DNA from: Alphaproteobacteria bacterium | GTDB lineage: Bacteria > Pseudomonadota > Alphaproteobacteria > JAJTHO01 > CANGYM01 | Length of the DNA: 64,000 nt | Direction: 5' to 3' | NCBI GenBank assembly: GCA_044375675.1 | Contig: JBILMD010000001.1 | Location: 126,396-190,395, forward strand | Shown here: positions 4,333 through 57,299 of the stretch, piece after piece | How the letters are laid out: each line of letters opens with the position of its first letter | How positions within the stretch are numbered: the first letter of the stretch is position 1 | The notes under the pieces: generated by a model | The model's input: the letters and a program-made list of their open reading frames with translations, nothing else | Told to the model about the DNA's origin: nothing | Databases searched by the model: none | Translations under genes and position numbers: made by a program

Positions 4333-4345
4333 GGGTATGCTGTTG

Positions 4346-5571: not shown

Positions 5572-5601
5572 TTACCCAGACCCCTACTCCTCGAGAGAAG
5601 A

Positions 5602-10886: not shown

Positions 10887-11173
10887 AACTTTCCCCAAAC
10901 AAAACACGCACTTAAAAAAAGAAGCAGGGGAGGGGACAAAACCACAGCAAAGGCACCCAACAACGGGGCGCTTTTTAGGGGCTTTGATCAACATCTCGTG
11001 CGGGCTTTACGCTTTTAAACTTTTAAAAACACCAGCAGTCTGCAACGTTTTTTCAAAAACAGGAACGCTACATAGCACAGCGGGGCAGGGGAGCGCAAGG
11101 GGGTTTTTTACAATATTGAGAAAAAATGAGCGCTATCGTCCAGCAATGAAAAGGATGGGAAGTGTGATCATTT
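10887..11173 (-). promoter_or_regulatory. Candidate L10 autoregulatory leader / promoter region
   Basis: About 290 nt of untranslated sequence upstream of rplJ. A structured L10(L12)4-binding leader is expected here in bacteria generally. The structure itself was not verified. Confidence 0.3.
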
Positions 11174-12055: not shown

Positions 12056-12720
12056 TACGTGTTTCCCAACTCTTCCATTTGCAGCCTATACAGTCGAGCC
12101 GTGACTTTGGCGGTCTTGATAATATTTTTCCCCATATTCGGTATATCAAGAATACCTGATTGCAGCGTTTTGCTGAACTCTTCCATGTGCTCATCATCAT
12201 GCGCGGAATGATACGTAAGAAAAGCCACCTGTTTATCTTCAAGATTCAATTGCTCCTGAATACTTTTTCCCCACTGACCGGCTTTCTTCTGGCCCAGCCC
12301 TTCAATAATGAACATAGCACCTAACAGGCGAAAAGGATTTGGCTGGCTTGCATGCTGGTACATATAGGCATGTAGCGCCTCCGAACCTATGTTTTTTTCT
12401 GCGCCGCGAATTTCTTCAAGCGTGCCACCTAAAGAAATATAACTTTCTTCAAGCATGCGGTAATCTTTGTGTTCTGTAATCGCATGCTTTAAAAAAACCG
12501 AGCGTTGTTCGAGATATTCTTCATCAATACTGGAAGCGGCGCGAGCAATCCACCGCGAACCTTCTACAACCTGCTGACGGTGGTTGACCAGAAGCATTTT
12601 ATAATCCTCAAGCTGGAATTTCTTGCGGTTAATTTTATCAATCAAAGGGACCGTATCAAGGATTGTATCAAAATCAGTCCAGACCTTGAGCAGCCCGCGC
12701 ATTACTTCTTCACTTTTCAT
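12055..12720 (-). CDS. Heme-oxygenase-fold (TenA/PqqC/CADD-like) putative iron-containing redox enzyme
   Basis: About 220 aa with spaced E/H-rich helices (FLKHAITEHKDY, IIEGLGQKK, FLTYHSAHDDEHMEE), reminiscent of HO-like diiron enzymes and TenA. Family assignment is tentative. Confidence 0.5.
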   Translation of the reverse strand: MKSEEVMRGLLKVWTDFDTILDTVPLIDKINRKKFQLEDYKMLLVNHRQQVVEGSRWIARAASSIDEEYLEQRSVFLKHAITEHKDYRMLEESYISLGGTLEEIRGAEKNIGSEALHAYMYQHASQPNPFRLLGAMFIIEGLGQKKAGQWGKSIQEQLNLEDKQVAFLTYHSAHDDEHMEEFSKTLQSGILDIPNMGKNIIKTAKVTARLYRLQMEELGNT

Positions 12721-12734
12721 TACCTCACCTTTCG

Positions 12735-13859
12735 TTATACGACCTCTAGTAACATCAATCCGTTCAATCCTCGCCCGCTTTCTGGTACATGACAGAGAAT
12801 TTTCTCGCCTGATTTCAGCTTCCCGCTATAAAATAGCTCCTCAAGCATTATTAAGATAGAGGCCGTTCCTGTATTGCCCTTACTGTACAGGTTGCTGAAC
12901 CATTTTTCTTCATCTATCATTGCGCCGGCCTTTTTAAGCAACGCAATTGTTTCTTCACGCAGCGAGTGCGAGGAATAATGGCAGCATAAATGATCAATTT
13001 GGTCGAGCACAATTTTCTTTTGATCTATCAGATCTAAGTAATGAGAAATCCAGACAGGGATCATTCTTTTTAACAAATGAAAATCCTGCGCTAGGACAAA
13101 GGCACCTTCGGAAAAAGCCGCTGCGGGGCTGAGAAAACTGCTCCAAGGTTCAATCCTATCGTCAGTGCGGACACCGCCTGCTAGCATGCAGGTATCAAAT
13201 CTGTCGGCGTAAGAGCGTATGTCAATCCAGCATATTTTTAGAGATATATGGCGCGTGTTTGCCTTGCTGCCAAGCATCGCGGCCCCTGCACCATCAGACA
13301 AGGTAAACCGAAGAAAGTCTACTTCGTAAGGTAAATATCCAAGCTCTTTCACTTGTGCGGTATCTTCATAGAACCCCGGTCTGAAGTAGCGACTGGCGAA
13401 TTCGCTACCTGATACGGCGGCACAATCATGCTCGTTCGCTTTAATCTGTGTGTATACTGATTTTACAGCCATGAGAACACTGGCGCATACGCTTTGGAAG
13501 CTGGCGATTTCAATTGGGGGAAGCTTCAGATTCGCATGAACATGGGATGCCAAACCCGGCACCAGAACATCACCCAATGTTGCCGATGTGGCCAGATAAG
13601 TAATGTCATTTAGGTTAGCCTCTGATTTCCTCAGGGCTTCCTGTATGGCGATAGCAGCCATATCCGCGCTGCCGTATTGCTGAACTCCATTATCATCCAG
13701 CGCATAATAACGTGTTTTTATTTTATTTTGGCGCAAGGCGGTGCTACGGAAACGCGATGGCTTGCCGTGAATGCATCCCAGATAATTTTCCATTTGGCTA
13801 TTTGGTATGGGCTGGCCGGGCAGAAAAATGCCAAGACTGTTAATGAATACATCCCTCAT
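12735..13859 (-). CDS. 3-oxoacyl-ACP synthase III (FabH/KAS III)-like condensing enzyme
   Basis: FabH-like N-terminus, active-site Cys in SVCASVLMAV, His in HYSSHS, and Asn in GNTGTASI. Confidence 0.75.
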   Translation of the reverse strand: MRDVFINSLGIFLPGQPIPNSQMENYLGCIHGKPSRFRSTALRQNKIKTRYYALDDNGVQQYGSADMAAIAIQEALRKSEANLNDITYLATSATLGDVLVPGLASHVHANLKLPPIEIASFQSVCASVLMAVKSVYTQIKANEHDCAAVSGSEFASRYFRPGFYEDTAQVKELGYLPYEVDFLRFTLSDGAGAAMLGSKANTRHISLKICWIDIRSYADRFDTCMLAGGVRTDDRIEPWSSFLSPAAAFSEGAFVLAQDFHLLKRMIPVWISHYLDLIDQKKIVLDQIDHLCCHYSSHSLREETIALLKKAGAMIDEEKWFSNLYSKGNTGTASILIMLEELFYSGKLKSGEKILCHVPESGRGLNGLMLLEVV

Positions 13860-15702: not shown

Positions 15703-16137
15703 TCACGACCCCTTTTTGGCCATCAGATCCCGAATTTCCGTGAGCAAGACCTCTGTTGGGGTGGGGACGGCTGCGGCGGCCTCTTCCTCTTTTATCACTT
15801 TGCTTTTCAGTTTATTGACCTGTTTGATCAAAACAAAAACGGCAAAGGACACAATCAAAAACTGAATCACCGCATTCAAAAACTTACCATAGGCGATGGG
15901 ACTGGCCCCTGCATCTTGGGCGGCCTTCAGGGTGGTGTAGACTTGATCCCCTGACAGGGCCACAAAAAAGTTTGAAAAATCAATGCCACCAATCAAAACC
16001 CCCAGCGGCGGCATCAAAATATCATTCACGAGTCCATTGACCACAGCCGTAAAGGCAGTCCCAATAATAATCCCCGTCGCCAGATCAATCATATTGCCAC
16101 GGGCGATGAAGGTTTTGAATTCTTTAAAGAAAGACAT
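15703..16137 (-). CDS. mscL: Large-conductance mechanosensitive channel
   Basis: MSFFKEFKTFIARGNMIDLATGIIIGTAFTAVVNGLVNDILMPP. ATG verified at 16137. Confidence 0.9.
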   Translation of the reverse strand: MSFFKEFKTFIARGNMIDLATGIIIGTAFTAVVNGLVNDILMPPLGVLIGGIDFSNFFVALSGDQVYTTLKAAQDAGASPIAYGKFLNAVIQFLIVSFAVFVLIKQVNKLKSKVIKEEEAAAAVPTPTEVLLTEIRDLMAKKGS

Positions 16138-16531
16138 AGACACAAACCCCATAATGAAAAAAAACCATCTTAGGGGATTTTGACAGGGTGGCAAGGCAAA
16201 ACGTTGGGGCAAAAAGTAAAACCACAAAGACAACACTATAATATAGTCACAAGCTATTGTTTTTAAATAGTTTTTTTGAAAAAGTGTGCCATAAAAAGAA
16301 AGCGCTAACCTTAACAGGGTGGAACGCAGGTTTATATCGCGGGCATCCCCCCCACAGAGCCCCCAACCTCTTTTTCCCCAGTGTTCTCCACGCAAGCGAT
16401 TTGCCTTTCACTGTTGATACAGCACCCCACCAACCAACCCACGCCCCCCCCATTGGTTCATCGCACCGTACGTAGGCACGCCCCCCCCTGCTGCAGATTT
16501 CTTATTTGTCATAATATAGCTTATAGGACTT

Positions 16532-40493: not shown

Positions 40494-41350
40494 ACCGCCG
40501 CCCATTGATTATGGGGATTGTCAACATCACGCCGGATTCTTTTTCGGGGGATGGTCGCGTGGATCCACGCGCCGCCGTGGCCCACGCGGAATCTTTGCTT
40601 CGGGACGGTGCGGATTGTCTGGATATCGGGGCCTACAGCTCCCGCCCGGGCGCCCCTTTTGTGGATCAGGGCACGGAATTATCGCGGCTTTTGCCCGCGC
40701 TTTCGTTGATTCGCCGCACGGTGTCATGCCCCCTGTTTGTGGATACGGCCCGCCCTGCCGTGGCCAGAGCCGCCCTTGATCTGGGCATTCAGGGCATCAA
40801 CACCATCGAGGGGCTTTCTATTCCTGCAGCGTTGTGGGATGTCCTTGCCGATTATCCCACAGCCAGCGTGATTATCATGCACAATCCCCTGCCCTTATTA
40901 TCCCCTGACCAAAAAAACGAGGGCCCCTGCCCCCCATCCCATCCCCCACATGTTTATCCCAAAGGGGTCATGACGCATGTTCGGGATGATCTGAAAACCG
41001 TCGTTGAAAACAGCCCCCTGCACCCTGCACGCATTCTGCTGGATCCTGGGGTGGGCTTTGGCAAGTCGGCGGCGGATAATTTTGCCCTGATTCAGGGCAT
41101 CGGGGCCCTCAGCACCCTTGGGCATCCCGTTGTTTTGGGGGTTTCGCGCAAATCGTTTTTGGGCTCTGTGGTCAAAAAAGAAGCCCCAGAGCGGATTTAC
41201 GCCGGTCTGGCGGCCATGCTGTTTGCGGCCCCCCATGTGGCCATGATCCGCACCCACGATGTGGGAGCTCTGGCCGATGGGCTAAAAGTCAGGGAAGCCT
41301 TGGAACAATCAAAAATTGAACCATCCGACTTCCCCAACATCACACCCTAA
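40490..41350 (+). CDS. folP: Dihydropteroate synthase
   Basis: IMGIVNITPDSFSGDG...DIGAYSSRPGA...DPGVGFGKS. Confidence 0.9.
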   Translation: MNRRPLIMGIVNITPDSFSGDGRVDPRAAVAHAESLLRDGADCLDIGAYSSRPGAPFVDQGTELSRLLPALSLIRRTVSCPLFVDTARPAVARAALDLGIQGINTIEGLSIPAALWDVLADYPTASVIIMHNPLPLLSPDQKNEGPCPPSHPPHVYPKGVMTHVRDDLKTVVENSPLHPARILLDPGVGFGKSAADNFALIQGIGALSTLGHPVVLGVSRKSFLGSVVKKEAPERIYAGLAAMLFAAPHVAMIRTHDVGALADGLKVREALEQSKIEPSDFPNITP

Positions 41351-41880
41351 AATTTCAGATCAATGCTTGTTAGTTTTTCATCCAACGCGCTCAGCACATC
41401 TTGGGTAATGTCCATGTTGCTGTCTGTCATCACCAGAACGCTGCTTCTGGGCAAAACCAACGTGTAGTTTTTTTCCTTAGCAATGCCAGAAATCACAGTC
41501 ATGGTCTGGGTTTGCAGGGTTTCCATGGCGGTTGAAAACGCCTTGTCTAGGCTATTTTTCTTGCCGCGCATGTTGGTTTGCAGCTTGCCCAAATCATTCT
41601 CAAACGCCTTGCGTTTTTCAGCATAGGCATCGGGGGACAAAACCGAACGATCCCGCGCCAAAGCATCTTTCGCATCGGAAAGTTTCTTTTGCTGGGATTC
41701 CAGATCCTTTTTGTACTCATCCTGCTTTTTGTTCATTTGCTGCTTGATCGAGGCCCCTGCTTTGGACGACTGCAAGATCACCTTCAAATCCACAACGGCT
41801 ACGGATTTCAGCTCTTGGGCCGACGCCACCGACGTCAGGGATACCAACAGCAATAACGAGAAAAACAATACGCGCATCAT
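41347..41880 (-). CDS. OmpH/Skp-family periplasmic chaperone
   Basis: Signal peptide, then a Lys/Gln-rich coiled-coil. Confidence 0.75.
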   Translation of the reverse strand: MMRVLFFSLLLLVSLTSVASAQELKSVAVVDLKVILQSSKAGASIKQQMNKKQDEYKKDLESQQKKLSDAKDALARDRSVLSPDAYAEKRKAFENDLGKLQTNMRGKKNSLDKAFSTAMETLQTQTMTVISGIAKEKNYTLVLPRSSVLVMTDSNMDITQDVLSALDEKLTSIDLKF

Positions 41881-44751: not shown

Positions 44752-45486
44752 ATGACCGCCCCCTACAAACGGATTCTTCTGAAACTCTCCGGCGAAGCCC
44801 TGATGGGCCCTGGGCAGTACGGGATTGACACCGACACGCTGGCCCGCATTGCCCGTGACGTGGCCGAGGTCCGCCAGACCGGCACCGAGGTGTGCATGGT
44901 CGTGGGGGCCGGTAACATTTTTCGGGGCATGTCCGGCGCCGCCGCGGGGATGGACCGCGCCACCGCCGATTATATGGGTATGCTGGGCACGGTGATGAAT
45001 GCGCTGGGATTGCAAAGTGTTTTAGAGGCCCACGGAATGCAAACCCGCGTTCAGTCCGCCATTCCCATGGCCTCAGTCTGTGAACCCTATATCCGCCGCC
45101 GCGCCATACGCCACATGGAAAAAGGACGGATTGTCATTTTTGCCGCCGGCACTGGCAACCCCTTTTTTACCACCGACACGGCGGCCGCCCTTCGCGCCGT
45201 GGAAATGTCCTGTGATGCAGTGGTTAAGGCCACCAAAGTCGATGGCATTTATTCCGCCGATCCCAAAAAGGACAAAAATGCCCAGCACCACCGCCATTTG
45301 ACCTATTTGGATGTTCTGGCCCGTGACCTGCGGGTGATGGATGCCTCCGCCATTTCTCTTGCGCGGGAAAACAATATCCCTATTATTGTGCTTTCAATTG
45401 AAAAAGGGGGGAACTTGGCCGGCGTTCTGCGCGGCGAAGGGCTCTTTACCATTGTCCAAGAAGAAAAGGAAAACGTAACATCATGA
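44752..45486 (+). CDS. pyrH: UMP kinase
   Basis: [14 protein letters not shown]...[10 protein letters not shown]. Confidence 0.95.
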
Positions 45487-46028
45487 GCGGCGATATTGAA
45501 AAACGCATGCAGGGGTCAGTGGAATCCCTGAAAAAAGAATTTTCAGGTCTTCGCACCGGACGGGCCTCGGCGTCTCTGCTTGAGCCCGTAACGGTAGAAA
45601 TCTACGGCAGCCGCATGACCCTGTCTCAGGTGGCCAGCGTGTCCGTCCCAGAATCCCGTTTGCTGGTGGTTCAGGTGTGGGATCATGGCAGTGCCCCCGC
45701 TGTGGAAAAAGCCATCCGTGATGCCGGACTCGGCCTGAATCCTGGGCGCGAAGGGGCCACCATTCGCGTGCCAGTGCCAGAACTGAATGAAGAGCGCCGC
45801 AAAGAACTGATCAAAGTGGCCGGAAAATACGCCGAAAGCGCCCGCATCGCCATTCGCAACATCCGCCGCGACGCCATGGACGATGTGAAAAAACGCGAAA
45901 AAGACGGCCATATTTCTGAGGACGATGTCACCAAACAAAACAAAGACATCCAAACCACCACCGACAAACACATCAAACAGGTGGACGATATGCTAACCCA
46001 GAAAGAACACGACATAAAAACCGTTTAA
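45483..46028 (+). CDS. frr: Ribosome recycling factor
   Basis: RRF-like sequence throughout. 4-nt overlap with pyrH. Confidence 0.95.
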
Positions 46029-46055
46029 CTTATTGTTCTTGAGAGAACTTTCTGT

Positions 46056-47465
46056 TCAAACGGCAACAGCCTTTTCAACATCCGCATAGCCCACCACCGT
46101 GCGGTTACGGCCTGCATGTTTGGCTTGGTACAGGGCCACATCGGCGGCCTTGATCATTTGGTCACGGGTAAAGGTTTCTTTGTCCGTTCCAGAAACCGTC
46201 ACACCAATGCTGATGCTGATGGTCATGGTGCCCCCCTGAATCAGGGAAAAAACTTTGTTTTCCACCGCGCGGCGCAACCGCTCGGCGATTCTAAGGCCCG
46301 TCCCCAAAGTGGCATTGTCAACAACCACAACGAATTCTTCCCCCCCCAAACGCGCCACCAGATCACTGTCGCGGGTGCTCATCTGCAGCAATCGGGCCAT
46401 TTCCACCAAAACCTTGTCCCCCTGATCATGCCCAAAGGTATCGTTGATGGATTTAAAATGATCAATATCAATGATCATCAAACACGAAGACCGCCTCTGT
46501 CCTGATTCCATCTGCAGCAAAGCATCAAGGTGGGCGTTAAAATAACGGCGGTTATAAAGTTTGGTCAACTCGTCCGTCAAAGACAAATCCATGGATTTTT
46601 CATGCGAAAGCCGCAGCAGTTTCTGATAAAGAAGGCGCTTGGCTTGTGTGCGAATACGCAGGCGGATCTCGTTGGGCTCGATGGGCTCTAAAATATAATC
46701 ATTCACGCCAATATCCAGCGCCTTGGCCAGTAAATTTTCCCTAAGATCCTGAGAAATCATAACAATAGGCAAATGACGCGTGGCTGGACTGCTGCGGATC
46801 TGCGAACATAAACGCAAAGTCTCTTCCCCATGAAATATCAGCGGCACCAAAGCCATATCATACTTGCGCGTATCCAAGGCCTTCGAAAAAGAGTCCATAC
46901 TGGTGAAAAAAGAGAGGTTGTGTTTATCCACACTCAAAAAACTCTCTATTTTTTCACGCAACACATCATCCTCCATCAGGCATGCCATGCGCACGCCGTG
47001 GATCTGATCATCGGTGGGAAAGGCCACCAGCTGTTCCTCAGGGATCCCCAATCCCGAAGAGGCCATGCGCTGAATTTTGAGGCTGTCCATCAAAACCTTT
47101 AGGCGAATCAACGACCGCACACGGGAAAGCAGCTGCAAATCCTGCACGGGTTTGGTTAAAAACTCATCTGCGCCTGCTTGAAGGCCGCGAATTCTATCCT
47201 TAAGCTCACCAAGGGCCGTCACCATAATCACGGGAATATGCGCGGTTTTTGGGTTTTTTTTCAAAATTTCACAAACCTGATACCCATCCATGTCCGGCAT
47301 CATCACATCCAGAAGAATGATGTCCGGCGGCTGTTGATTCACCAGATCCAGGGCTTTCTGACCGGATGTGGCGGTGCTGACATCAAAATATTCCGAAGCC
47401 AGCTTGGCCTCCAAAACCCCCAGATTGGCCACCCGATCATCCACAATAAGAATACGGCCCGTCAT
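46056..47465 (-). CDS. pleD: PleD-like REC-REC-GGDEF diguanylate cyclase response regulator
   Basis: Two receiver domains and a C-terminal GGEEF motif (RLGGEEFVVV). Confidence 0.9.
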   Translation of the reverse strand: MTGRILIVDDRVANLGVLEAKLASEYFDVSTATSGQKALDLVNQQPPDIILLDVMMPDMDGYQVCEILKKNPKTAHIPVIMVTALGELKDRIRGLQAGADEFLTKPVQDLQLLSRVRSLIRLKVLMDSLKIQRMASSGLGIPEEQLVAFPTDDQIHGVRMACLMEDDVLREKIESFLSVDKHNLSFFTSMDSFSKALDTRKYDMALVPLIFHGEETLRLCSQIRSSPATRHLPIVMISQDLRENLLAKALDIGVNDYILEPIEPNEIRLRIRTQAKRLLYQKLLRLSHEKSMDLSLTDELTKLYNRRYFNAHLDALLQMESGQRRSSCLMIIDIDHFKSINDTFGHDQGDKVLVEMARLLQMSTRDSDLVARLGGEEFVVVVDNATLGTGLRIAERLRRAVENKVFSLIQGGTMTISISIGVTVSGTDKETFTRDQMIKAADVALYQAKHAGRNRTVVGYADVEKAVAV

Positions 47466-47866
47466 AGCTTGATCCCGTGATGGTTGGAAACATCTTGGCC
47501 TGCACCTGCAAAAGAATTAACAATACTCAACATGGCGTTCATATCCACAGGTTTTGTCATATATCCATGAAAACCCTTGTCTTTGGCAAGATGCTGTTCC
47601 TCAGCATGGGCGCACGCCGTCACTGCAATCACGGGAATGGTGGCAGAAAAGGGATCTTGTTTCAAAAGCTCCATAACATCAAAACCCGAGATATCCGGCA
47701 ACTGAATGTCCAGCAAAATCAAAAAAGGCCGCCATTCCTGCACCCAGGATACCACATTTAAACCACTGTGAAGATTTTTTGTGGTATAACCATGAACTGT
47801 CAGGAAATCAGCCAAAAGCTTATAATTTAAGCGATTGTCCTCAATGATAAGAATCATTTTGTTCAT
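47462..47866 (-). CDS. divK: DivK-like single-domain response regulator
   Basis: ILIIEDNRLNYKLL...LLDIQLPDISG...MTKP. 4-nt overlap with pleD. Confidence 0.9.
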   Translation of the reverse strand: MNKMILIIEDNRLNYKLLADFLTVHGYTTKNLHSGLNVVSWVQEWRPFLILLDIQLPDISGFDVMELLKQDPFSATIPVIAVTACAHAEEQHLAKDKGFHGYMTKPVDMNAMLSIVNSFAGAGQDVSNHHGIKL

Positions 47867-48051
47867 AAAGCGTTCATTTCAAAGCAATTTTGTCTACATC
47901 TAAAGCCTTTCCCTAAACTCTACACCAAAGACCGTTACTTTTTCATTGCGAACACAACGCCGGAACAATGTTTTTTTCAGGGGCGTGCATTTTTTCAAGA
48001 TTTTTTTAGGATCTTGCGCCTGCGCGGATCCTCGCCTATGAATCAAAGGGA

Positions 48052-49602
48052 TTGTTTAAGCACGAGATCCACCCCATGGTCCCAGCCAACCCCGCGCACC
48101 AAGACGAATCCATCGCCATGGGCGATTGGCGGCGTTTGTTTTTGGCCTTCAGCCCCACGGGCGAACCCTATACCACCAAAGGGGATATTCTCAGCATCCT
48201 GTCCAAAAACGGCATTCATAAAAAAGATAACCGTATTCAGGATTTGATTGAGGCCCTAGAGGCCTACACCACAAAAGAGCCCATAGATTTTGAAACCTTC
48301 CGATCCTTGGCCGGACGTCATGTCTATTTGCTGCAACGCGCGGCGCAGGGCGGCTTTATTATCCCTGATTTTTCAGGATTTACGGATCATATTGCCCAGA
48401 TTTATCAGGATCTTTTGTCCATCAACACTGGCGATGTGGCCCGTTATATCCCCCAACTGGCCAGAGTGGACCCCAAATATCTGGGCATCAGCGTTTGCAC
48501 AGTGGATGGACAAACGTTTGATATTGGGGATACGGATGTGGGTTTTTGTGTGCAATCCACCTGCAAACCCGTGACCTATTGCATTGCGCTGGAGGACGTT
48601 GGCGAAGACACAGTCCACGCCCACGTGGGCCGCGAACCCAGCGGGCAAAATTTTAACGCCATTACACTCAACAGCAAAAACCTGCCCCATAACCCCATGA
48701 TCAACGCGGGATCCATGGTGTGTGCATCCCTGATTCGCCCCCAACAACCGCTGGCGGATCGTTTTGATGCCATTTTATCCGTCTGGCAAAGGTTGTGCGG
48801 CGGCGTGCGCCCGGGATTCAACAGCTCGGTGTATCATTCTGAAAAGGAAACAGCCGACCGCAACTTTGCACTGGCGTATTTTTTAAAGGAAGTGGGGGCC
48901 TTCCCCAGCGGCACAGATATTCATCAAACCTTGGATCTGTATTTTCAGTGTTGCTCTATTGAGGTCACAACCAAAGCCATGGCCACCCTGGCCGCAACCT
49001 TTGCCGGCGCAGGTGTGTGCCCCATGACGGGGGAGCGCGTGCTGTCCCCAGCATCCGTAAAACATGGCTTATCCCTGATGTTATCCTGCGGCATGTATAA
49101 TTTTTCGGGGGAATTTGCCTTTACTGTGGGCTTGCCAGCAAAATCGGGGATTTCCGGCGTGATTATGCTGGTGGTGCCGGGGGTAATGGGCATCACCATT
49201 TGGTCCCCCCGTCTGGACCCTTTGGGCAACAGCGTGCGGGGGGTGGCATTTTGCGAAAAGCTGGTGTCGCTTTACAATTTCCATAATTTTGACGGGGTGG
49301 GGCCCGCGTCCGAAAAAACGGATCCCCGTCTGCACGCCCATCAGGAAAAACAATACTTGGCCCTTTCCCTGATTCTGGCCAGCAGCCAAGGGGATCTGGA
49401 CGAGGTCAAACGCCTGATGGCCCGCGGGGCATCCCCCAATGTTCCCGATTATGATGGACGCACGGCCCTGCATTTGGCCGCGGCAGAGGGACGGCAAGAG
49501 GTCGCCCGTTATCTGTGCCGTCTGGGGGCCAGTTTGGATGTGCGGGATCGTTTTGGGCGCACCCCGCGCGAAGAAGCCGCTGCTTCGGGAATCACCCTGT
49601 GA
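48052..49602 (+). CDS. glsA: Eukaryote-type (kidney-type) glutaminase: EF-hand-like N-domain, glutaminase domain, C-terminal ankyrin repeats
   Basis: [13 protein letters not shown]...[25 protein letters not shown]...[15 protein letters not shown] parallels my memory of human GLS (FVIPDFMSFTSHI...[25 protein letters not shown]). C-terminal ANK repeats ([13 protein letters not shown]...). Confidence 0.85.
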   Translation: [516 protein letters not shown]

Positions 49603-50306
49603 AGCCCCGCCACGTGGCCATCATCATGGACGGCAATGGCCGATGGGCTCAGGCCCGTGACCTGCCCCGCAGCCATGGCCATCGGGCGGGCCAAGACGCC
49701 GTCAAAAAAGCCGTCACCTACGCCGCCGAAGTGGGTATCCCCTATCTTACGCTTTATTCCTTTTCCGAAGAAAACTGGCACCGCCCGCCCGAGGAAATCG
49801 AGGCCCTGATGACCCTGCTGGTGCAGGCCCTGAGCACCGAAACAAACTGGATGGTCCGCAACGGGATTCGCCTGAACATCATCGGCGCCACGCACAAATT
49901 TTCCCAAACCGTGCAGCAATCCTTGAACCATGCCATGGCAGAAACGGCAACCGGAACACGCCTGACCCTCACCCTTGCCCTCAGCTATGGGGGTCGGCAG
50001 GACATTTTGCAGGCTGTGGAAACCATCGTTAACGAAAACAAAAATGCTGCACTGACGCAGGATTTTTTTGCGCAGCATTTATACACCAAAACCCTGCCCG
50101 ATCCCGATATCATCCTGCGCACGGGCGGGGAATACCGGCTGAGTAATTTTTTGCTGTGGCAATCGGCTTATAGCGAGCTGATCTTTATGGATGTGCTGTG
50201 GCCGGATTTTTCTGAGGATCAGTTTGCAGAGGCCCTGACCCTTTTTGCCGGTCGCCAGCGACGCTATGGCCGCGCGGATGCATCACCGCCGGAGGCCACC
50301 CCATGA
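49599..50306 (+). CDS. uppS: Undecaprenyl-diphosphate synthase (GTG start overlapping the glsA stop)
   Basis: PRHVAIIMDGNGRWA...LTLYSFSEENWHRP...LWQSAYSEL. Confidence 0.9.
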   Translation: MKPRHVAIIMDGNGRWAQARDLPRSHGHRAGQDAVKKAVTYAAEVGIPYLTLYSFSEENWHRPPEEIEALMTLLVQALSTETNWMVRNGIRLNIIGATHKFSQTVQQSLNHAMAETATGTRLTLTLALSYGGRQDILQAVETIVNENKNAALTQDFFAQHLYTKTLPDPDIILRTGGEYRLSNFLLWQSAYSELIFMDVLWPDFSEDQFAEALTLFAGRQRRYGRADASPPEATP

Positions 50307-50911
50307 AGGATCGTCTGCTGGTGGCGCTGGTGTTAATGGGGATTGTGGTGGGGGCGTTTGCTTTGCACGTGTTTTTTCTGTTGCCGCTCTTGGTGTGCGC
50401 CTTGGGGTTTTGGGAATGGTTGCCGTTATCCAAAAACCCGTCTTGTGCCCCGTGGCTGCGTACTGCGGTTCCGGTGGTGTTTTTTGTGATTCCCGCTGTG
50501 AGTTTTTTGGGGCTGGGGGATGCGCAGGCATTGGTGTTGGTGATTGTGGTGGCCCTGACCGATACTTTGGCATATCTCGTGGGTCGTCGGTATGGCCGCC
50601 GTAAATTGGCCCCCAGCATCAGCCCAGGCAAAACGTGGGAGGGGTTTTTGGGGGCGATTGTCTTGGCCCCCACAGTCGTGGCGCTGGGCCTAACCCTTTT
50701 TCAGGGGCCGCCGCTTTTTGCCTTTTCCAGTCTGGTGATTCTGGCCCTTTTATCCCAAATGGGCGATTTGATGGAATCAAAACTCAAACGTCATCTGAAC
50801 ATTAAGGACACAGGGACCTTGCTGCGGGGGCACGGCGGCATTATGGACCGCGTGGATGGATTCATTCTGGCCGCGCCGATGGCGTGGCTGTTGTCGGGTG
50901 TTTTATCATGA
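50303..50911 (+). CDS. cdsA: Phosphatidate cytidylyltransferase (short form)
   Basis: C-terminal CdsA signature SPGKTWEGFLG...DTGTLLRGHGGIMDRVDG. Confidence 0.8.
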   Translation: MKDRLLVALVLMGIVVGAFALHVFFLLPLLVCALGFWEWLPLSKNPSCAPWLRTAVPVVFFVIPAVSFLGLGDAQALVLVIVVALTDTLAYLVGRRYGRRKLAPSISPGKTWEGFLGAIVLAPTVVALGLTLFQGPPLFAFSSLVILALLSQMGDLMESKLKRHLNIKDTGTLLRGHGGIMDRVDGFILAAPMAWLLSGVLS

Positions 50912-52053
50912 CGATAAAAAAACGTGTCACCATACTCGGATCCACAGGATCCGTGGGACAAACCGCGCTGCGGTTGATGGCGGATCACCCTGATGATTTC
51001 GACATCTTCGCCCTGGTGGCGGACAGCAACGTTGACCTTTTGGCCCAAGACGCCCGCCGCTTTGGGGCGACATTTGCCGTTTTGGCCGATCCCCTGCGGT
51101 ATAATGATTTGAAAAACGCCTTGGCCGGATCCCCCGTTCAAGGGGTTTGCGGGGATGCCGCCATTGCCCAAATCTGCGCGGAACCCGTTGATATTGTCAT
51201 TGCGGCCATTTCGGGATCTGCGGGCTTGGTGCCCACGTACACGGCCTGTCAGAATGCCCGCGTGGTGGGGATTGCCAACAAAGAATCCCTGGTTTGCGCC
51301 GGATCATGGATTATGGAATCCGCGGCGCGTCGGGGCGCGCGCATTGCGCCGCTGGATTCGGAACATCACGCCCTGTCCTGTTTGCTGCGGGGGGTGCCCG
51401 CGGATCAAGTGAAAACCCTTGTGTTGACGGCCTCGGGCGGCCCCTTTCGCACCCGCCAAGACCTGCGCCATGTCACCCCTGCAGAGGCCCTGCGCCACCC
51501 CACGTGGTCCATGGGGAAAAAAATTTCTGTGGATTCCGCAACCTTGATGAACAAGGGGCTGGAGCTGATCGAGGCCTGCATTCTGTTTGGTGTTGAGGAA
51601 TCCCGCATAGAAACCCTGATTCATCCCGAATCCATCGTTCATGGTCTGGTGACGTGCAAAAACGGCGGGACGCTGGCCCATCTGGCCCCTGCCGATATGC
51701 GCTATCCTTTGCGGGATGCGTTGTTTGATGAACAGCGGGACCTTTTGGCGCCCTTATCCTTTCAACAGGGACTCAGCCTGACTTTTGAACCGGTGGATCA
51801 CAAACGCTTTCCCGCCATCACGCTGGCGCGGGCCGCTTACCGCGAAGGTCAGGCCGCCTGTATCGTTTTGAATGCCGCCAACGAATGCGCGGTGCAGGCG
51901 TTTTTAGAGGGAAACCTGAGTTTTCTGGGCATTTCCAGCGCAGTGGAAGAGGCCCTGACCCGCCACCACACGCAAACCATCACAACGCTTCAGGATGTTC
52001 TTGCATTGGATCAGGAAGTCAGGCAGACTGCAAAAAAAACCCCGTTTAGGTGA
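50908..52053 (+). CDS. dxr: 1-deoxy-D-xylulose 5-phosphate reductoisomerase
   Basis: VTILGSTGSVGQTAL...PLDSEHHAL. Confidence 0.95.
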   Translation: MTIKKRVTILGSTGSVGQTALRLMADHPDDFDIFALVADSNVDLLAQDARRFGATFAVLADPLRYNDLKNALAGSPVQGVCGDAAIAQICAEPVDIVIAAISGSAGLVPTYTACQNARVVGIANKESLVCAGSWIMESAARRGARIAPLDSEHHALSCLLRGVPADQVKTLVLTASGGPFRTRQDLRHVTPAEALRHPTWSMGKKISVDSATLMNKGLELIEACILFGVEESRIETLIHPESIVHGLVTCKNGGTLAHLAPADMRYPLRDALFDEQRDLLAPLSFQQGLSLTFEPVDHKRFPAITLARAAYREGQAACIVLNAANECAVQAFLEGNLSFLGISSAVEEALTRHHTQTITTLQDVLALDQEVRQTAKKTPFR

Positions 52054-52060
52054 TCGGACT

Positions 52061-53167
52061 ATGGACTTTTTGCTGCAATACGATGCGATTGCGTTTATTT
52101 TGGTTCTAACCTCCCTGATTTATGTGCACGAGCTGGGACATTATGTCGTGGCCCGTATGAACGGCGTTCGGGTCGAGGTCTTTTCCATAGGCTTTGGCCC
52201 CGAAATTTACGGATGGCGCAACAAACATGGCACCCACTGGAAAATTTCCCTGATACCCTTTGGCGGGTATGTCAAAATGTTCGGGGATACCAACATTGCC
52301 AGTGCCCCCATGGGTACGGACGATGGCATGACGGCCGAGGAAAAAAAGGTCGCCTTTCCCTATAAAAAACTTCACCAACGGGCCGCTGTGGTGGCCGCCG
52401 GACCCATTGCCAATTTTTTGTTTGCCATTGTTGTGTTTGTGGGCGTTTACGCCACGCTGGGTCAGGTATATGCCCCCCCCGTGGTGGGTGATTTTACCGA
52501 TGATTCCGCCGCCAAGGGCCATCTTCAGGTGGGAGACCGCATTGTGTCCATCAATGGTAAGGCCATTGAAAGCTTCTCTGACATCCAGAACATGACCCGT
52601 CTTTATGATCGGCCAGAGCCCATGATCATTACCTATGAACGTCAGGGCGTTCAAAACACCGTGTCCATCCAACCGCGACGCGAAAAAATCACCGACAATC
52701 TGGGCCAAACTAGCCAGATTGCCCTTTTGGGCATCACCACCAACGAAAGCGACCTCAGGGATTTACCCTTGCATCGGGCCGTTCCTGCCGCCTTCGAGGA
52801 TACATGGGCCATCGTCACAGGCACCATGACGGGGTTATGGCAAACCATCACCGGCGTGCGTTCGGTCAAGGAACTGGGTGGCCCCGTTCAAATTTATCGC
52901 ATTTCTGAAAAGGTGGGCGAGCAAGGCATCATCGCTTTGGTTATTTTTGCGGCACACCTATCCATCAGCCTTGGCCTGATCAATTTGCTTCCGGTACCCG
53001 CCTTGGACGGCGGCCATTTGGTGTTTTATTTTTTTGAGGCCCTTTTGGGAAAACCCCTGCCCCAAAAAGCCCAAGAAATCGGGGCCTTCGCCGGCGTCGC
53101 CATGATTTTGATGCTGGTGGTTGTGGTCACTTGGCATGATGTCCAGAGGATTCTGCAAGCCGGATAA
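52061..53167 (+). CDS. rseP: RIP zinc metalloprotease RseP (site-2 protease)
   Basis: HELGHYVVAR HExxH motif, a PDZ-like middle domain, C-terminal TM helices. Confidence 0.9.
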   Translation: MDFLLQYDAIAFILVLTSLIYVHELGHYVVARMNGVRVEVFSIGFGPEIYGWRNKHGTHWKISLIPFGGYVKMFGDTNIASAPMGTDDGMTAEEKKVAFPYKKLHQRAAVVAAGPIANFLFAIVVFVGVYATLGQVYAPPVVGDFTDDSAAKGHLQVGDRIVSINGKAIESFSDIQNMTRLYDRPEPMIITYERQGVQNTVSIQPRREKITDNLGQTSQIALLGITTNESDLRDLPLHRAVPAAFEDTWAIVTGTMTGLWQTITGVRSVKELGGPVQIYRISEKVGEQGIIALVIFAAHLSISLGLINLLPVPALDGGHLVFYFFEALLGKPLPQKAQEIGAFAGVAMILMLVVVVTWHDVQRILQAG

Positions 53168-53304
53168 AGGTTTGCCCATCCAGTGTGGCCCAAGGGCAAC
53201 AGGGGGCGCCTTCTCTCCCACCCATGATGTTTTCGGGGTAGACCGGTTTCCTTGGGGATGGTAAACCCATAGCCGTGGATTGTGTTTTGAAACGGAGTTA
53301 TGGG

Positions 53305-55581
53305 ATGCCTGTGCGATTTGTTTTTTGCTTTCTGGTGTTGGTTGCTTTTTGGGCGACATCAGCCACAGCCGCAACGGTCAAATCCATCACTGTTAAGGGC
53401 AACGAACGCATTCAGGAATCCACCATTCGCGCCTATATCCCCCTGCAAACGGGGCAGCCTTTCAACCAGTCCGATATGGATCGCGCCCTGAAAGAACTCT
53501 ATGAAACCGGCCTGTTTTCGGATGTGAACATCACGGATGACCAGGGCAACCTTCGTGTCGTTGTTTCCGAAAACCCCATTTTGAACGAGGTTGTTTTCGA
53601 AGGGAATGACGCCCTGTCCGATGATGTCATCAAACAAGAGCTCACCCTGAAATCCCGTGATGTGATCACCGCAGGGAAGGTGAAGCAAGATGTGGACCGG
53701 CTGCAAAAACTGTATCAGCGCAAAGGTTTTTATGGCGCCCAGATCGAGGCCGAGTATATCAAAAAAGACCAAAATCGCGTGGACTTGGTGTTAACCTTTA
53801 ACGAGGGGACAAAAACCACAATTTCCCGCATTACCTTTGTGGGCAATCGTTTTTTTAGCCAAGACACCTTGCGCTCTGTGATCACATCACGGGAATCGGC
53901 GTGGTATCAGTTTCTTTCCAGCACGGACATTTATGATCCGGACTTGGTGACCTATGACGAACAACAATTGACCCAGCATTACCGCAACAACGGGTTTATG
54001 GATTTCCGCGTCACATCCGTGGATGCCACGTTATCCAAAGACCGAAAGCAATTTTCGCTGACCTTTTTTATTGAGGAAGGCACACGCTACACCATTGGCA
54101 ACGTTGATTTTAAAAGCGTGTTTAAGGATATCACCCCCGATGACCTGAAACCCCTTCTGGTTTTTGAATCCGGCGATGTTTTTCGCCAGAAAGATATTGA
54201 TGCCTCTGAATCCGCTTTGGTGGATTTTTTGGGGTCCCGCGGCTATGCCTTTGTGGATATTGATCCTATGTTTGCCCCCCGAGACGTTAATAAAGAGACC
54301 GGTGAAGGGGTGGTGGATGTGACCTTCTCCCTGAAAGAGGGGCGCCGTGTCTATATCGAACAGATCAACATCATTGGAAACGTGCGCACATTGGACAAAG
54401 TCGTGCGCAGAGAATTAACCTTTGCCGAAGGGGACCCCTACAACGCCATCAAAATTCGTGAATCGGAAAAAAACATCCGTAACTTGGGGTACTTTAAAAC
54501 CGTTAAGTTTGATATTAAAGAGGGCTCCACCCCCGATCAAAGCATCATTAACATTGAAATTATGGAACAACCCACAGGGGAGCTGTCTCTGGGTGCCGGT
54601 TTTTCATCCACAGAATCCGTATTGGCGGATATTCGGTTAAGAGAGCGGAATTTTTTGGGGCGGGGACAGGATGTTCGGGCCTCAGCCTCTTTGTCCGGCA
54701 AGCGGCAACAGGTGGATTTGGGGATTGCCGACCCGTATTTTCTGGATCGTAAACTTTACGGCGGACTGGATTTCCAAAACTTGGTTCGTGACTTTCAGGA
54801 CGAAAGCTCCTACGACGAAGAACGCTTGGGCGGCCGTGCCACCTTGGGGTTTGATCTGGGGCCGGATTTAAACCAGCGCGTATTTTATTTTGCCAACAAT
54901 GTCAAAATCAGCGATGTCGATGAGGATGCCTCTCGGTTCATCAAGGATCAAGAAGGGGAATTTCTAACCTCAGGCGTGGGAACCCGCTTTACCTATGACA
55001 AACGGGACAACCGCATTGAACCCAGCGAAGGGTATATGACCTATTATGAAGCCAACTTTGCCGGTGTTGGCGGCGATGTGGATTATTTGCGCAATGAAAT
55101 TGGGGCGGTGAAATACTGGCCCCTTTATGAAAAAGACTGGGTGCTCAGCACCGAGGCCGACACAGGGTATGTGTTTGATTATTCCGGCGGTGATGTGCGC
55201 ATCAATGACCGATTTTTTCTGGGTGGCGGCCGTTTGCGGGGGTTTGAATTGGCGGGTATTGGTCCCAGAGACAGCACCACAGAGGATGCCCTGGGGGGAC
55301 AATATTACGCACGGACATCTGCAGAATTGCGCTTTCCCTTGGGATTGCCTGAGGAACTGGGCCTGAGCGGGGTTTCCTTTATCGATGCAGGGGTTTTAAG
55401 TGACGCCGTGGATCAGGGGCCCGAGGTTCAGGACGATAACAGCATCCGCGCGTCAGGTGGCGTGGGATTGGCGTGGCGCTCTCCTTTTGGTCCCGTCAGC
55501 ATTGATTATGCCATTCCCTTTGCCAAAGAAGATTACGACCAGGAAGACCGTTTCCGCTTTAATTTTGGCACCCAGTTTTAG
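53305..55581 (+). CDS. bamA: Outer-membrane protein assembly factor BamA
   Basis: Signal peptide, POTRA repeats (SITVKGNERIQESTIRAYIP...), and a C-terminal beta-barrel ending ...RFRFNFGTQF. Confidence 0.95.
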   Translation: MPVRFVFCFLVLVAFWATSATAATVKSITVKGNERIQESTIRAYIPLQTGQPFNQSDMDRALKELYETGLFSDVNITDDQGNLRVVVSENPILNEVVFEGNDALSDDVIKQELTLKSRDVITAGKVKQDVDRLQKLYQRKGFYGAQIEAEYIKKDQNRVDLVLTFNEGTKTTISRITFVGNRFFSQDTLRSVITSRESAWYQFLSSTDIYDPDLVTYDEQQLTQHYRNNGFMDFRVTSVDATLSKDRKQFSLTFFIEEGTRYTIGNVDFKSVFKDITPDDLKPLLVFESGDVFRQKDIDASESALVDFLGSRGYAFVDIDPMFAPRDVNKETGEGVVDVTFSLKEGRRVYIEQINIIGNVRTLDKVVRRELTFAEGDPYNAIKIRESEKNIRNLGYFKTVKFDIKEGSTPDQSIINIEIMEQPTGELSLGAGFSSTESVLADIRLRERNFLGRGQDVRASASLSGKRQQVDLGIADPYFLDRKLYGGLDFQNLVRDFQDESSYDEERLGGRATLGFDLGPDLNQRVFYFANNVKISDVDEDASRFIKDQEGEFLTSGVGTRFTYDKRDNRIEPSEGYMTYYEANFAGVGGDVDYLRNEIGAVKYWPLYEKDWVLSTEADTGYVFDYSGGDVRINDRFFLGGGRLRGFELAGIGPRDSTTEDALGGQYYARTSAELRFPLGLPEELGLSGVSFIDAGVLSDAVDQGPEVQDDNSIRASGGVGLAWRSPFGPVSIDYAIPFAKEDYDQEDRFRFNFGTQF

Positions 55582-55838: not shown

Positions 55839-57299
55839 ATGAAAAAAAGTGTTGTACTTTTGGGGTTCTATCTGTGGGGGGCGCATAGTGCCAACGCGGA
55901 ATCCTTGGATGGTTTTTTTCAGGATCAGGCACCTGCCCAGCAACCTGCTTCCCAAGACACCCCCAGCGACGATACCCCGAAAACTGTGGCCAATAACGGC
56001 CCCACGGTGATCAAGCCGCAAGTTTTGTATTTGGAGGATTTAAATCCCCCTGAAAAACCCAAAGTCAACCCGCCCGCAGCCACATCTACCCCCGCGGCCA
56101 GCCTAGAGGCAAAAGCGAAAACGCCCTCCGCGGCTGAGCCCTCAGCCACCCCCGTGGCCTTGCCACCCCCCCCCCTTACCCCCGCCAAACCAACGGCAGG
56201 GGCGGCCTCTGGTGCAGGAAAAATCAAAAAAGAGCCTTTGCCCAAATCCACTGCGCAGACCCCAAAAGCCGCCCCTGTGGCCCCTGCTGCCGCTGCGGCC
56301 GCCGCCCCAACGCAGGCCCCCGTTGTACAAAAATCATTCATTCAGAGCCGATCCACACGGGCAGAAGAGACACAAAACAATCTTCCCGAATCTTCCCAAA
56401 CCCTGTCGTCTTTTCAGGAACAGCATCAGGGACAATACGCCCCGTTTGCCACGCAAACCTCTCGTCAGCAGGCCGCCCACAGTCTGGTGACACAGGCCAA
56501 AAACGAAGGCCGCACGTATCCCGCCGGTCTTGATCCCTTTGTTATTGAATTTGACCAGACTTTCGCTGTTTTATCCCCCAACCGCGCCATTCGGGATCTG
56601 TACAAAACCGCCACCATCACGCTACCCACTGTGGAAGATCCGTCCCCATTGTCCTTTAACGCCACCCCCACGATGCCCGCCGCCCCTGTGGTGACCCTTG
56701 CGACGCCTGCGCCAATTCAGGCCGTCACAGCCCCCGAAACTGAAACAGAAAAAACCCCTGATATCCAGATGTCTCCCCAGCCCGTGGTTGACGCAGTGCC
56801 CGAAACACCCCAAAAACCCATGGAATCAACCAAAGAGGTTGCCGCCCTGGCCCCCGAAACCCCAAACACCCTTGTCTTAGAGGACACCGCCCCGACCAGA
56901 ACCGAAACGCCCCGTCTGGCGGACCGCGAAGGCCCCACGACCTTGGCCACGGTTATGGTGCCAGAAACGGCGGAAATGCTGGATAATAAAACAAAAGCCC
57001 TGCTGGATCAGGTGGCCGCCGCGTATCATGACGGCAGCCTCAGGGTCATTCAGATTACCGGATACGTCAACACCCGCTCTGGCCAAAATGAAGATGTTCG
57101 GGGCTATACCCACATTCAATCCTTGGGTCGCCGCGGTGCTGCCTTGGTGGTGGATTATTTAAAGGGGAAAAACGTCCCTGAATCCGCCATGGCCTACCGC
57201 ATTATCCCCACCAGCACCATTGCACTTCAGAATCCGTTTTATGCCTCTCTTTCCACCGAAAACACCCTGCGGCTGGATATTGTGGGCGGGCGGTCGTAA
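55839..57299 (+). CDS. Secreted Pro/Ala-rich protein with a C-terminal OmpA-like domain
   Basis: Signal peptide, roughly 350 aa of low-complexity P/A/T-rich sequence, then an OmpA-C-like tail (SLGRRGAALVVDYLKGKNVPESAM). Contains a C9 tract. Confidence 0.6.
   Translation: MKKSVVLLGFYLWGAHSANAESLDGFFQDQAPAQQPASQDTPSDDTPKTVANNGPTVIKPQVLYLEDLNPPEKPKVNPPAATSTPAASLEAKAKTPSAAEPSATPVALPPPPLTPAKPTAGAASGAGKIKKEPLPKSTAQTPKAAPVAPAAAAAAAPTQAPVVQKSFIQSRSTRAEETQNNLPESSQTLSSFQEQHQGQYAPFATQTSRQQAAHSLVTQAKNEGRTYPAGLDPFVIEFDQTFAVLSPNRAIRDLYKTATITLPTVEDPSPLSFNATPTMPAAPVVTLATPAPIQAVTAPETETEKTPDIQMSPQPVVDAVPETPQKPMESTKEVAALAPETPNTLVLEDTAPTRTETPRLADREGPTTLATVMVPETAEMLDNKTKALLDQVAAAYHDGSLRVIQITGYVNTRSGQNEDVRGYTHIQSLGRRGAALVVDYLKGKNVPESAMAYRIIPTSTIALQNPFYASLSTENTLRLDIVGGRS

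Follow-up and report, generated by a model that had tools for sequence, protein, structure and literature searches.

Glutaminases that join an EF-hand-like domain, a catalytic domain and ankyrin repeats are described from mammals, and our literature search for characterised bacterial ankyrin-glutaminases found only mammalian work. In the mammalian enzymes one lysine (GAC Lys320, GLS2 Lys253) is involved in phosphate activation and filaments, and a GLS2 K253A mutant is described whose filaments are constitutively active and need no phosphate (PMC13142944). The bacterial enzymes E. coli GlsA1/YbaS and GlsB/YneH and B. subtilis YbgJ are single-domain proteins. The three-domain architecture reportedly moved from bacteria to eukaryotes and not the reverse, as Pasquali et al. 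are said to have concluded in 2017. Gene order provides the other points of reference for the locus studied here: the proteobacterial pyrH-frr-(dxr)-uppS-cdsA-rseP-bamA-skp cluster, and the Caulobacter operon in which divK is followed by pleD.

We analysed a window of 64,000 nt from an alphaproteobacterial contig, in which a three-domain glutaminase gene and a divK-pleD pair lie between frr and uppS. We give a probability of about 80% to the reading that the enzyme is a bacterial glutaminase A of ordinary kind and vertical descent, captured once at the frr|uppS junction, with divK-pleD relocated later. What is peculiar to one lineage is the gene order; the enzyme type itself was already known. 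The organism and all its relatives are known only from MAGs or metagenome contigs.

The open reading frames and domain searches define the interrupted block gene by gene. On the plus strand, pyrH (44752-45486; UMP kinase; Pfam AA_kinase, 124.9 bits), the first gene of the block and 5' of frr in nearly all related loci, precedes frr (45483-46028; ribosome recycling factor; Pfam RRF, 214 bits). Next come pleD (46056-47465) and a divK-like gene (47462-47866), both on the minus strand, and the plus-strand glutaminase gene gls (48076-49602, with an alternative TTG start at 48052), which was identified by Pfam, NCBIfam, a PDB match and an AF2 model searched with Foldseek. The usual 3' neighbour of frr, uppS (49599-50306, plus strand; undecaprenyl diphosphate synthase; Pfam Prenyltransf, 274 bits; TIGR00055, 263 bits), is thereby shifted 3.5 kb away. 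It overlaps by 4 bp a short cdsA (50303-50911, plus strand; 202 aa; Pfam CTP_transf_1, 156 bits), whose match covers only profile positions 123-260 of 264. The remaining plus-strand genes were assigned from their reading frames: dxr (50908-52053) also from its translation, with its ATG at 50908 overlapping the cdsA stop and DXP_reductoisom domains on the dxr gene call of relative L005; rseP (52061-53167; M50 site-2 protease) with Peptidase_M50 and PDZ domains in relatives; and bamA (53275-55581), the last gene of the block, with POTRA and Omp85 domains in relatives.

The frr-uppS junction is normally tight, as the initial annotation had held. Among 80 metagenomic frr loci, with Frr mostly 58-67% identical, the gap was 19-151 bp in all but one locus showing both genes, and none of the other sampled frr-uppS loci had a detected gls at the junction. 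On these comparisons, and with the same block in E. coli, the ancestral state is frr followed directly by uppS, and the gene order bears out that divK-pleD and gls interrupt an otherwise conserved junction in the window.

The link between gls and uppS is the fixed part of the new arrangement. Read directly, the gls TGA (49600-49602) overlaps the GTG at 49599 that opens uppS, giving GTGA (MKPRHVAIIMDGNGRW), exactly as first noted. This overlap is invariant in five lineage members, and all members share a C-terminal truncation ending ...SGITL. The order frr-gls-uppS, whose frequency in relatives had been raised as a question, or at least gls-uppS, is found in every close relative: where gls is 73% identical or more, it adjoins uppS in 11 of 11 loci, whereas the 74 more distant gls loci include no such case. 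The lineage so defined consists of uncultured freshwater alphaproteobacteria from the Rimov reservoir, Lake Mendota and 'GROS21' metagenomes. From the invariant GTGA, the proposed co-transcription of gls with uppS is judged likely, as is translational coupling. The same overlap suggests that gls would be translated as the first cistron of a tightly packed gls-uppS-cdsA-dxr-rseP(-bamA) operon.

DNA on the 5' side of gls varies, and this junction has been rearranged repeatedly within the lineage. Relatives L001-L003 (gls 73% and RpoB 88% identical) have a frr-gls gap of 3 bp without divK-pleD. The window order recurs in L005-L010, L089 and L092, although in L009 a further 6 kb separates divK from gls, and L011 has different DNA 5' of gls. 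The divK-pleD pair occupies the frr|gls junction only in the sub-lineage of the window; relatives carry it beside thrC and ndk (L088) or rpmG (L090), and a REC gene followed by pleD is found in L088, L089 and L090. L088 reads thrC-divK-pleD-ndk, with PleD 77% identical, and comes from the same sample as the gls contig L004 (85% identity). The shared sample and matching divergence suggest that the two belong to one genome, and the sister sub-lineage probably keeps the pair in this setting. Both gls and divK-pleD were inserted, as had been proposed, probably in two separate events of different ages.

We infer the direction and order of these events from the sequence comparisons. In the ancestor of the freshwater lineage, gls would have been captured once between frr and uppS, an event that may have cut the last ankyrin helix and created the GTGA stop/start overlap. 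Later, in the window sub-lineage only, the genome's own divK-pleD would have moved into frr|gls in opposite orientation, apparently a shift of two native genes within the genome. Signs of a mobile element or horizontal island were not found: the locus has no tRNA, IS element or flanking repeats of note. Scanning all of the window for tRNAs and Rfam families gave no hits, and so neither an rRNA for taxonomy nor a tRNA insertion site, and a repeat search for IS-like or att-like borders and flanking repeats around the inserted genes returned only short, chance-level matches. GC3 values of gls (0.61) and pleD (0.58) lie inside the host range (0.56-0.74 in neighbouring genes), and divK alone is low (0.45).

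The relocated pair comprises a clear pleD and a putative divK. PleD has the REC-REC-GGDEF architecture of a diguanylate cyclase response regulator and scores 507 bits against NCBIfam NF007135 (cutoff 474). Its translation 'RDSDLVARLGGEEF' carries GGEEF as the GG(D/E)EF motif and RDSD as the RxxD site five residues upstream. Outside the lineage its closest homologues are alphaproteobacterial, at 45-53% identity. The neighbouring gene, which overlaps pleD by 4 bp, encodes 134 aa with one REC domain (Pfam Response_reg, 77.8 bits); no DivK-specific model reached its cutoff (NF045717, 48.6 bits against 160), and the name DivK is given by context only.

Candidate regulatory sequences flank the pair. 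A hairpin at 46021-46063 spans the 27-nt spacer of the convergent frr and pleD stops (RNA fold -12.6 kcal/mol, z = -2.75 against shuffles) and may be a bidirectional terminator, of which it is weak evidence because a scan for consensus terminators missed it. Immediately 5' of gls, a promoter-like block (48003-48049, plus strand) contains TTGCGC (48014-48019), 17 nt and TATGAA (48037-48042). By alignment it is conserved in the window and in L007, L008, L009, L010 and L011, though DNA further 5' differs, and this conservation points to a putative promoter. A generic sigma-70 scan did not pick up the TTGCGC-17-TATGAA motif, and in the generic search for promoters and terminators the totals did not exceed those expected from shuffled sequence. 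The block was also read as a sigma-54 site, a reading rejected because its GG-to-GC spacing is wrong. On the proposed scheme, divK-pleD relocation would have uncoupled pyrH-frr, ending at the small hairpin, from gls-uppS, now presumably driven by the conserved motif.

The glutaminase has three domains, as the initial annotation described. Pfam searches place EF-hand_14 (PF17959) at residues 29-105 (27.9 bits, cutoff 23.7), the serine-dependent Glutaminase domain (PF04960) at 127-413 (370 bits), and Ank, Ank_2, Ank_4 and Ank_5 above their cutoffs at 440-513; the protein also passes TIGR03814 (315 bits, cutoff 255). Catalytic residues Y132, S169, K172, N218, E264, N271, Y297 and Y349 (516-aa numbering), which include the Ser-x-x-Lys pair, are all conserved. 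The enzyme, which would be cytoplasmic, is predicted from its conserved active site to hydrolyse L-glutamine to L-glutamate and ammonium. It starts about 20 residues ahead of the helical bundle, and reading the sequence revealed no hydrophobic signal-like stretch at its N-terminus. An AlphaFold model (pLDDT 83.7; N-terminal helices at 15-113 in 508-aa numbering) superposes by Foldseek on near-full-length human KGA (8gwr, 5uqe) over 489-494 columns with TM 0.73-0.78. Two details of the earlier description needed adjustment. The size of 516 aa holds from the TTG at 48052, but every relative conserves the ATG at 48076 (508 aa), and their gene calls begin there. The kidney-type layout is not quite full: the last ankyrin repeat is truncated and its final helix missing, leaving 2.5 repeats in total, and the C-terminus is 14-25 aa shorter than in every homologue outside the lineage.

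This architecture is widespread among bacteria. GTDB species genomes that encode it number at least 579 and span more than 10 phyla, with carriers including Streptomyces, Micromonospora, Salinispora, Sphingomonas, Flavobacterium, Aureivirga and Saonia; many of the genera are cultured and free-living. The best 120 matches, from sources including Planctomycetota, Myxococcota, Nannocystis, Streptomyces and Thiodiazotropha, all have Glutaminase and Ank and almost all EF-hand_14, and bacterial three-domain homologues are plainly annotated 'glutaminase A'. Against these bacterial homologues the window protein is 50-58% identical, compared with 45-50% against eukaryotic GLS, and it ranks 76th of 82 bacterial sequences by similarity to eukaryotic GLS. 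It therefore falls among the ordinary ankyrin-glutaminases of free-living bacteria, an outcome that the initial annotation had named as counting against its own proposal.

Phylogeny of the glutaminase agrees. In a simple neighbour-joining tree with Kimura distances, the lineage forms a clade with 100% bootstrap nested among alphaproteobacterial MAG sequences, and its sister clade lacks a eukaryote in 85 of 100 bootstraps. Bacterial monophyly has a bootstrap of only 32%, and the lineage is long-branched. GLS2 was taken from PDB 8t0z, which has Ala at residue 253 and so appears to be the K253A mutant; the tree is unaffected. An alphaproteobacterial gls as direct ancestor of mitochondrial GLS was considered and found no support: in this tree the eukaryotes diverge basally among the three-domain enzymes, and the most eukaryote-like bacterial sequences are members of Myxococcota, Acidobacteriota and Bacteroidota.

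That the glutaminase is eukaryote-derived or a host-interaction protein, its ankyrin repeats marking a host-associated lifestyle, is very improbable and already largely refuted. The strong colinear similarity to animal enzymes that had been noted is real: residues 41-510 of the window protein align with human GLS2 and GLS, scoring about 464 bits (E. coli YbaS, 191 bits), with 44-46% identity through all three domains. Its ankyrin region weakly matches Legionella Dot/Icm Ank effectors (30 bits against a cutoff of 600), some neighbours in the tree are labelled 'Rickettsiales' or 'Chlamydiales' MAGs, and the sister clade includes a eukaryote in 15 of 100 bootstraps. Against this stand the at least 579 species genomes with free-living phyla and genera, the closer identity to bacterial homologues, the low rank in eukaryote-likeness, a gls GC3 typical of the genome and the N-terminus lacking a signal-like stretch. 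Moreover, the window encodes hisA/hisF, argB, folB/folP, folD and prs, with histidine, arginine and folate biosynthesis represented, unlike the pattern of a reduced symbiont, and the best named matches of RpoB are free-living Rhodospirillales at about 70% identity. Because the three-domain enzyme is common in free-living bacteria, the locus is better read as a lineage-specific quirk of gene order than as pointing to a eukaryotic source or a host-associated life. A chimera made in assembly or binning is more improbable still, to the point of being negligible. Every relative is a MAG or metagenome contig and divK GC3 is noticeably below its neighbours, but several lakes, projects and assemblers independently yielded the identical frr-pleD-divK-gls-uppS order, in L005, L006, L007, L008, L010, L089 and L092.

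Selection on the gls-uppS linkage itself is unlikely, yet deserves more weight than either of these. Glutamine hydrolysis would then be expressed together with, and coupled in translation to, production of the envelope lipid carrier, phospholipid, isoprenoid precursors and outer membrane; it might serve as a source of glutamate or D-Glu for peptidoglycan, or match the growth of the envelope to nitrogen status. Neither the GTGA overlap nor the adjacency of gls and uppS varies in a lineage whose identity has fallen to 73% in gls and 88% in RpoB, the linkage was kept despite at least three different rearrangements immediately 5', and the promoter-like block travels with gls. Elsewhere the linkage is missing, with none of 74 gls loci of other bacteria near uppS or frr and no gls in the other sampled frr-uppS loci, and conservation may be passive, since tight overlaps, once formed, are hard to break. 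We know of no biochemical link of glutaminase with the UppS, CdsA or Dxr reactions. A real regulatory link of glutamine/nitrogen status, or of glutamate supply, to envelope-precursor synthesis is correspondingly doubtful; if true, the precursors concerned would be undecaprenyl phosphate, CDP-diacylglycerol, MEP-pathway isoprenoids and BamA.

A single capture of an ordinary bacterial glutaminase A, followed by relocation of divK-pleD, has modest implications. Kidney-type architecture, with its ankyrin repeats, is common in bacteria and should not be taken to indicate a host-associated life or transfer from eukaryotes to bacteria, contrary to what had first been supposed. The locus would show cleanly, and in a datable form, how an operon is remodelled in uncultured freshwater alphaproteobacteria, with a gene captured by stop/start overlap and a native regulator pair then relocated. 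Beyond annotation it matters little, and the finding is ordinary.

Compared with known gene clusters, the window has the same genes in the same orientation as the proteobacterial cluster of E. coli and metagenomic loci. It departs from them in the 3.5-kb interruption at frr|uppS, the short cdsA and the position of skp (41347-41880), upstream of bamA on the other strand instead of downstream. Its regulator pair likewise follows the Caulobacter type, a single-REC gene and then an overlapping REC-REC-GGDEF gene, at a different site, the frr-gls junction.

Compared with known glutaminases, the window enzyme is 44-46% identical to mammalian KGA/GLS and GLS2 (PDB 5uqe, 8gwr, 8szl) over about 490 aligned positions, and the equivalents of Tyr249, Ser286, Lys289, Asn335, Glu381, Asn388, Tyr414 and Tyr466 are identical. 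Unlike the mammalian enzymes, it lacks a mitochondrial presequence or long N-terminal extension, has Ser instead of Asp as the first residue of the EF-hand-like loop, differs in the 11 residues of the activation loop (mammalian GLRFNKLFLNE), and, of the three ankyrin repeats that KGA has, lacks the last helix of the third. Ala replaces the Lys320/Lys253 lysine; the bacterial consensus here is Glu (64 of 82 sequences, with Ala in 14). By this lysine and the missing extension it is not a mammalian-type mitochondrial GLS/GLS2, and the natural Ala could interest enzymologists of phosphate-independent or filament-forming glutaminases. The single-domain E. coli and B. subtilis enzymes share its catalytic fold and residues at 35-37% identity, without the EF-hand-like and ankyrin domains. 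Bacterial three-domain glutaminase A (Streptomyces, Micromonospora, Sphingomonas, Flavobacteriia, Myxococcota, Planctomycetota) has the same architecture at the 50-58% identity given above, and differs in its longer C-terminus; the GTGA overlap with uppS belongs to the window lineage alone.

An ORF map and domain scans bore out the proposed gene order, in which a divK-pleD pair and a glutaminase gene (gls) separate frr from uppS. pyrH (44752–45486, +) and frr (45483–46028, +) are followed by pleD (46056–47465, −), a divK-like single-receiver gene (47462–47866, −), gls (48052/48076–49602, +) and uppS (GTG start at 49599, to 50306, +), then by cdsA (50303–50911), dxr (50908–52053), rseP (52061–53167) and bamA (53275–55581). 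PleD passes its NCBIfam equivalog profile (507 bits, cutoff 474) and carries GGEEF and RxxD motifs. Reading the sequence confirmed that the gls stop overlaps the uppS start, with TGA and GTG sharing the GTGA at 49599–49602. The annotated gls length of 516 aa stands if counted from TTG 48052, but the conserved start is ATG 48076, which gives 508 aa.

The premise that frr and uppS are normally adjacent holds. Across 80 metagenomic frr loci (Frr mostly 58–67% identical), the two genes lie 19–151 bp apart wherever both are visible, with one exception. The usual order there is a complete pyrH-frr-uppS-cdsA-dxr-rseP-bamA block; E. coli has the same block, but dxr has moved. The only other sampled frr locus with an interrupted junction, L162 (7537–8876), is an independent insertion: its 1.37-kb gap encodes two small Cys-rich proteins of 114 and 125 aa with signal-peptide-like N-termini.

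Linkage of gls to uppS is restricted to one lineage of uncultured freshwater alphaproteobacteria (gls at least 73% identical) and is universal within it. At 74 loci in other bacteria, where gls identity is no higher than 56%, neither frr nor uppS occurs within 10 kb of gls. Lineage loci L005–L010 and L089 share the order of the window, and the short contig L092 preserves its frr-pleD-divK part. Three others (L001–L003) read pyrH-frr-gls-uppS, without divK-pleD and with only 3 bp between frr and gls, while L004 and the Lake Mendota locus L011 retain gls-uppS, L011 having different DNA upstream of gls. The GTGA overlap is unchanged in five members, the most distant included. All members end in SGITL, 14–25 residues short of every outside homologue and without the last ankyrin helix, so that the final repeat of gls is truncated. 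Lineage-wide linkage, an invariant overlap and a common short C-terminus together argue that gls joined the 5′ end of uppS in one ancient event.

The divK-pleD pair is younger than gls at this site. It is absent from the junction in lineage members including L001, a GROS21 metagenome locus. L088, from the same sample as L004, has the order thrC-divK-pleD-ndk-pirin, with a PleD 77% identical to that of the window, and in L090 a more distant PleD (51%) adjoins rpmG. Because the closest PleD homologues belong to the lineage but sit at another locus, the comparison indicates internal relocation rather than foreign acquisition. GC3 is ordinary for pleD (0.58) and lower for divK (0.45), and searches for tRNAs, IS elements and flanking repeats found none. 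The junction upstream of gls is unstable. In the Rimov reservoir MAG locus L009 (gls 91% identical), about 6 kb of extra DNA (3359–9378) lies between divK and gls, marking the same junction as a recurrent insertion site. Its translations read as an RNR beta subunit, a HigB/HigA-like toxin-antitoxin pair, IlvD (dihydroxy-acid dehydratase), a coiled-coil protein with tandem EIKRLESQxKEGFDHVQL repeats and a small membrane protein.

Candidate expression elements flank divK-pleD. A block of about 45 bp directly upstream of ATG 48076 is kept in every lineage locus, even where the DNA beyond it differs. It contains TTGCGC-17 nt-TATGAA (48014–48042), a putative promoter for the overlapping or closely spaced genes gls-uppS-cdsA-dxr-rseP. 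Between frr and pleD, the 27-nt spacer can form a modest hairpin (−12.6 kcal/mol, z = −2.75), a candidate terminator for both convergent transcripts. As a generic promoter and terminator scan called neither, we treat both roles as hypotheses drawn from sequence. Conserved adjacency is the one observation in favor of a functional coupling between gls and envelope biogenesis, which we consider unlikely.

The glutaminase has the three-domain layout of kidney-type enzymes, as the initial annotation described. Pfam finds EF-hand_14 (27.9 bits, cutoff 23.7), a Glutaminase domain (370 bits) and four ankyrin families over cutoff. Residues 41–510 are colinear with human GLS2 and GLS at about 464 bits, compared with 191 bits for E. 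coli YbaS, consistent with the similarity to animal GLS claimed earlier. An AlphaFold2 model (pLDDT 83.7, pTM 0.77) best matches near-full-length human KGA (8gwr, 5uqe) over 489–494 columns, at 44% identity and TM 0.73–0.78; the domains of KGA are described in PMC11224379. The catalytic set is complete, with equivalents of human Y249, S286, K289, N335, E381, N388, Y414 and Y466. The EF-hand-like loop begins with Ser, where most homologues have Asp.

This layout, which the initial annotation took as a possible sign of inter-domain transfer, is not eukaryotic. A protein-database search with gls returned thousands of matches; all of the top 120, from Planctomycetota, Myxococcota, Nannocystis, Streptomyces, Thiodiazotropha and "Rickettsiales" MAGs among others, combine Glutaminase and Ank, nearly all with EF-hand_14. 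Scanning one genome per GTDB species confirmed at least 579 loci, the best 80 of which include cultured free-living Streptomyces, Micromonospora, Salinispora, Sphingomonas, Flavobacterium, Aureivirga, Saonia and Flagellimonas, as well as Acidobacteriota, Gemmatimonadota, Melainabacteria and Margulisbacteria. In a neighbor-joining tree (89 sequences, 461 columns, with E. coli GlsA1/GlsB as the root), the window gls and its close relatives form one clade (100% bootstrap) among alphaproteobacterial MAG sequences within the bacterial radiation, and human GLS, GLS2 and three EukProt sequences branch earliest within the three-domain group. This tree is crude, with 32% support for bacterial monophyly and a eukaryote entering the sister clade of the long-branched lineage in 15 of 100 replicates, so we added a tree-free identity test. 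The window gls is 55–58% identical to its best bacterial homologues versus 45–50% to eukaryotes. It comes 76th when 82 bacterial sequences are ordered by their mean identity to eukaryotic GLS, with Myxococcota, Acidobacteriota and Bacteroidota members at the top. Its GC3 (0.61) falls within that of neighboring genes (0.56–0.74). The protein is an ordinary representative of the glutaminase A subfamily, which is widespread among bacteria. Pasquali et al. reportedly proposed in 2017 that eukaryotes inherited the multidomain architecture from bacteria.

Nothing supports the host association also read into this layout. Rimov reservoir and Lake Mendota MAGs match the source, an uncultured alphaproteobacterium, at 91–98% gls identity. 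The RpoB of this bacterium shares 88% identity with that of a GROS21 relative; no other match exceeds 73%, and the best ones with a name (about 70%) are free-living Rhodospirillales. The window also encodes hisA/hisF, argB, folD, prs, folB/folP and a SerB-like HAD hydrolase, a gene set unlike that of a reduced endosymbiont. On reading the sequence, we saw no hydrophobic signal-like stretch at the gls N-terminus.

Further observations concern other genes of the window. Two features point to more rearrangement around the block: skp/ompH, downstream of bamA in E. coli and L001, here lies 12 kb upstream on the opposite strand (41347–41880, −) beside truA and fmt, and bamA is followed by a 486-aa protein that is rich in Pro and Ala and matches no Pfam family (55839–57299, +). 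CdsA, 198–202 aa in all lineage members, has 202 aa in the window and covers only the C-terminal half of CTP_transf_1 (positions 123–260 of 264); the E. coli gene has 858 bp (about 285 aa). At other frr-uppS loci, cdsA matches often begin 300–400 bp past uppS, suggesting a longer N-terminus there. Elsewhere, a cluster of three genes at 11174–13859 (−) adjoins rplJ (10377–10994) in the rpoB region, unexpected company for ribosomal-protein and RNA polymerase genes; it encodes a DUF6999 protein (345 bits), an iron redox enzyme of Haem_oxygenas_2 type and a KAS III-like protein (ACP_syn_III_C). A 230-aa MscL ORF with a TTG start (15703–16395, −) carries its domain at residues 89–225, so either the true start is further downstream or it has an unusual N-terminal extension of about 88 aa.

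The enzyme differs from its human counterparts at a regulatory position. In the human enzymes, GAC K320 / GLS2 K253 gates phosphate activation, and replacing this lysine by Ala gives a constitutively active enzyme that forms filaments (PMC13142944). The equivalent residue in gls is Ala203 (516-aa numbering); other bacterial members have Glu (64 of 82), Ala (14) or Gly (4). By analogy with the human mutant, we expect a phosphate-independent enzyme. What sets this case apart is the apparent capture, in one lineage, of a common bacterial glutaminase by the uppS operon, and the later, probably internal, move of the native divK-pleD pair to the same site.
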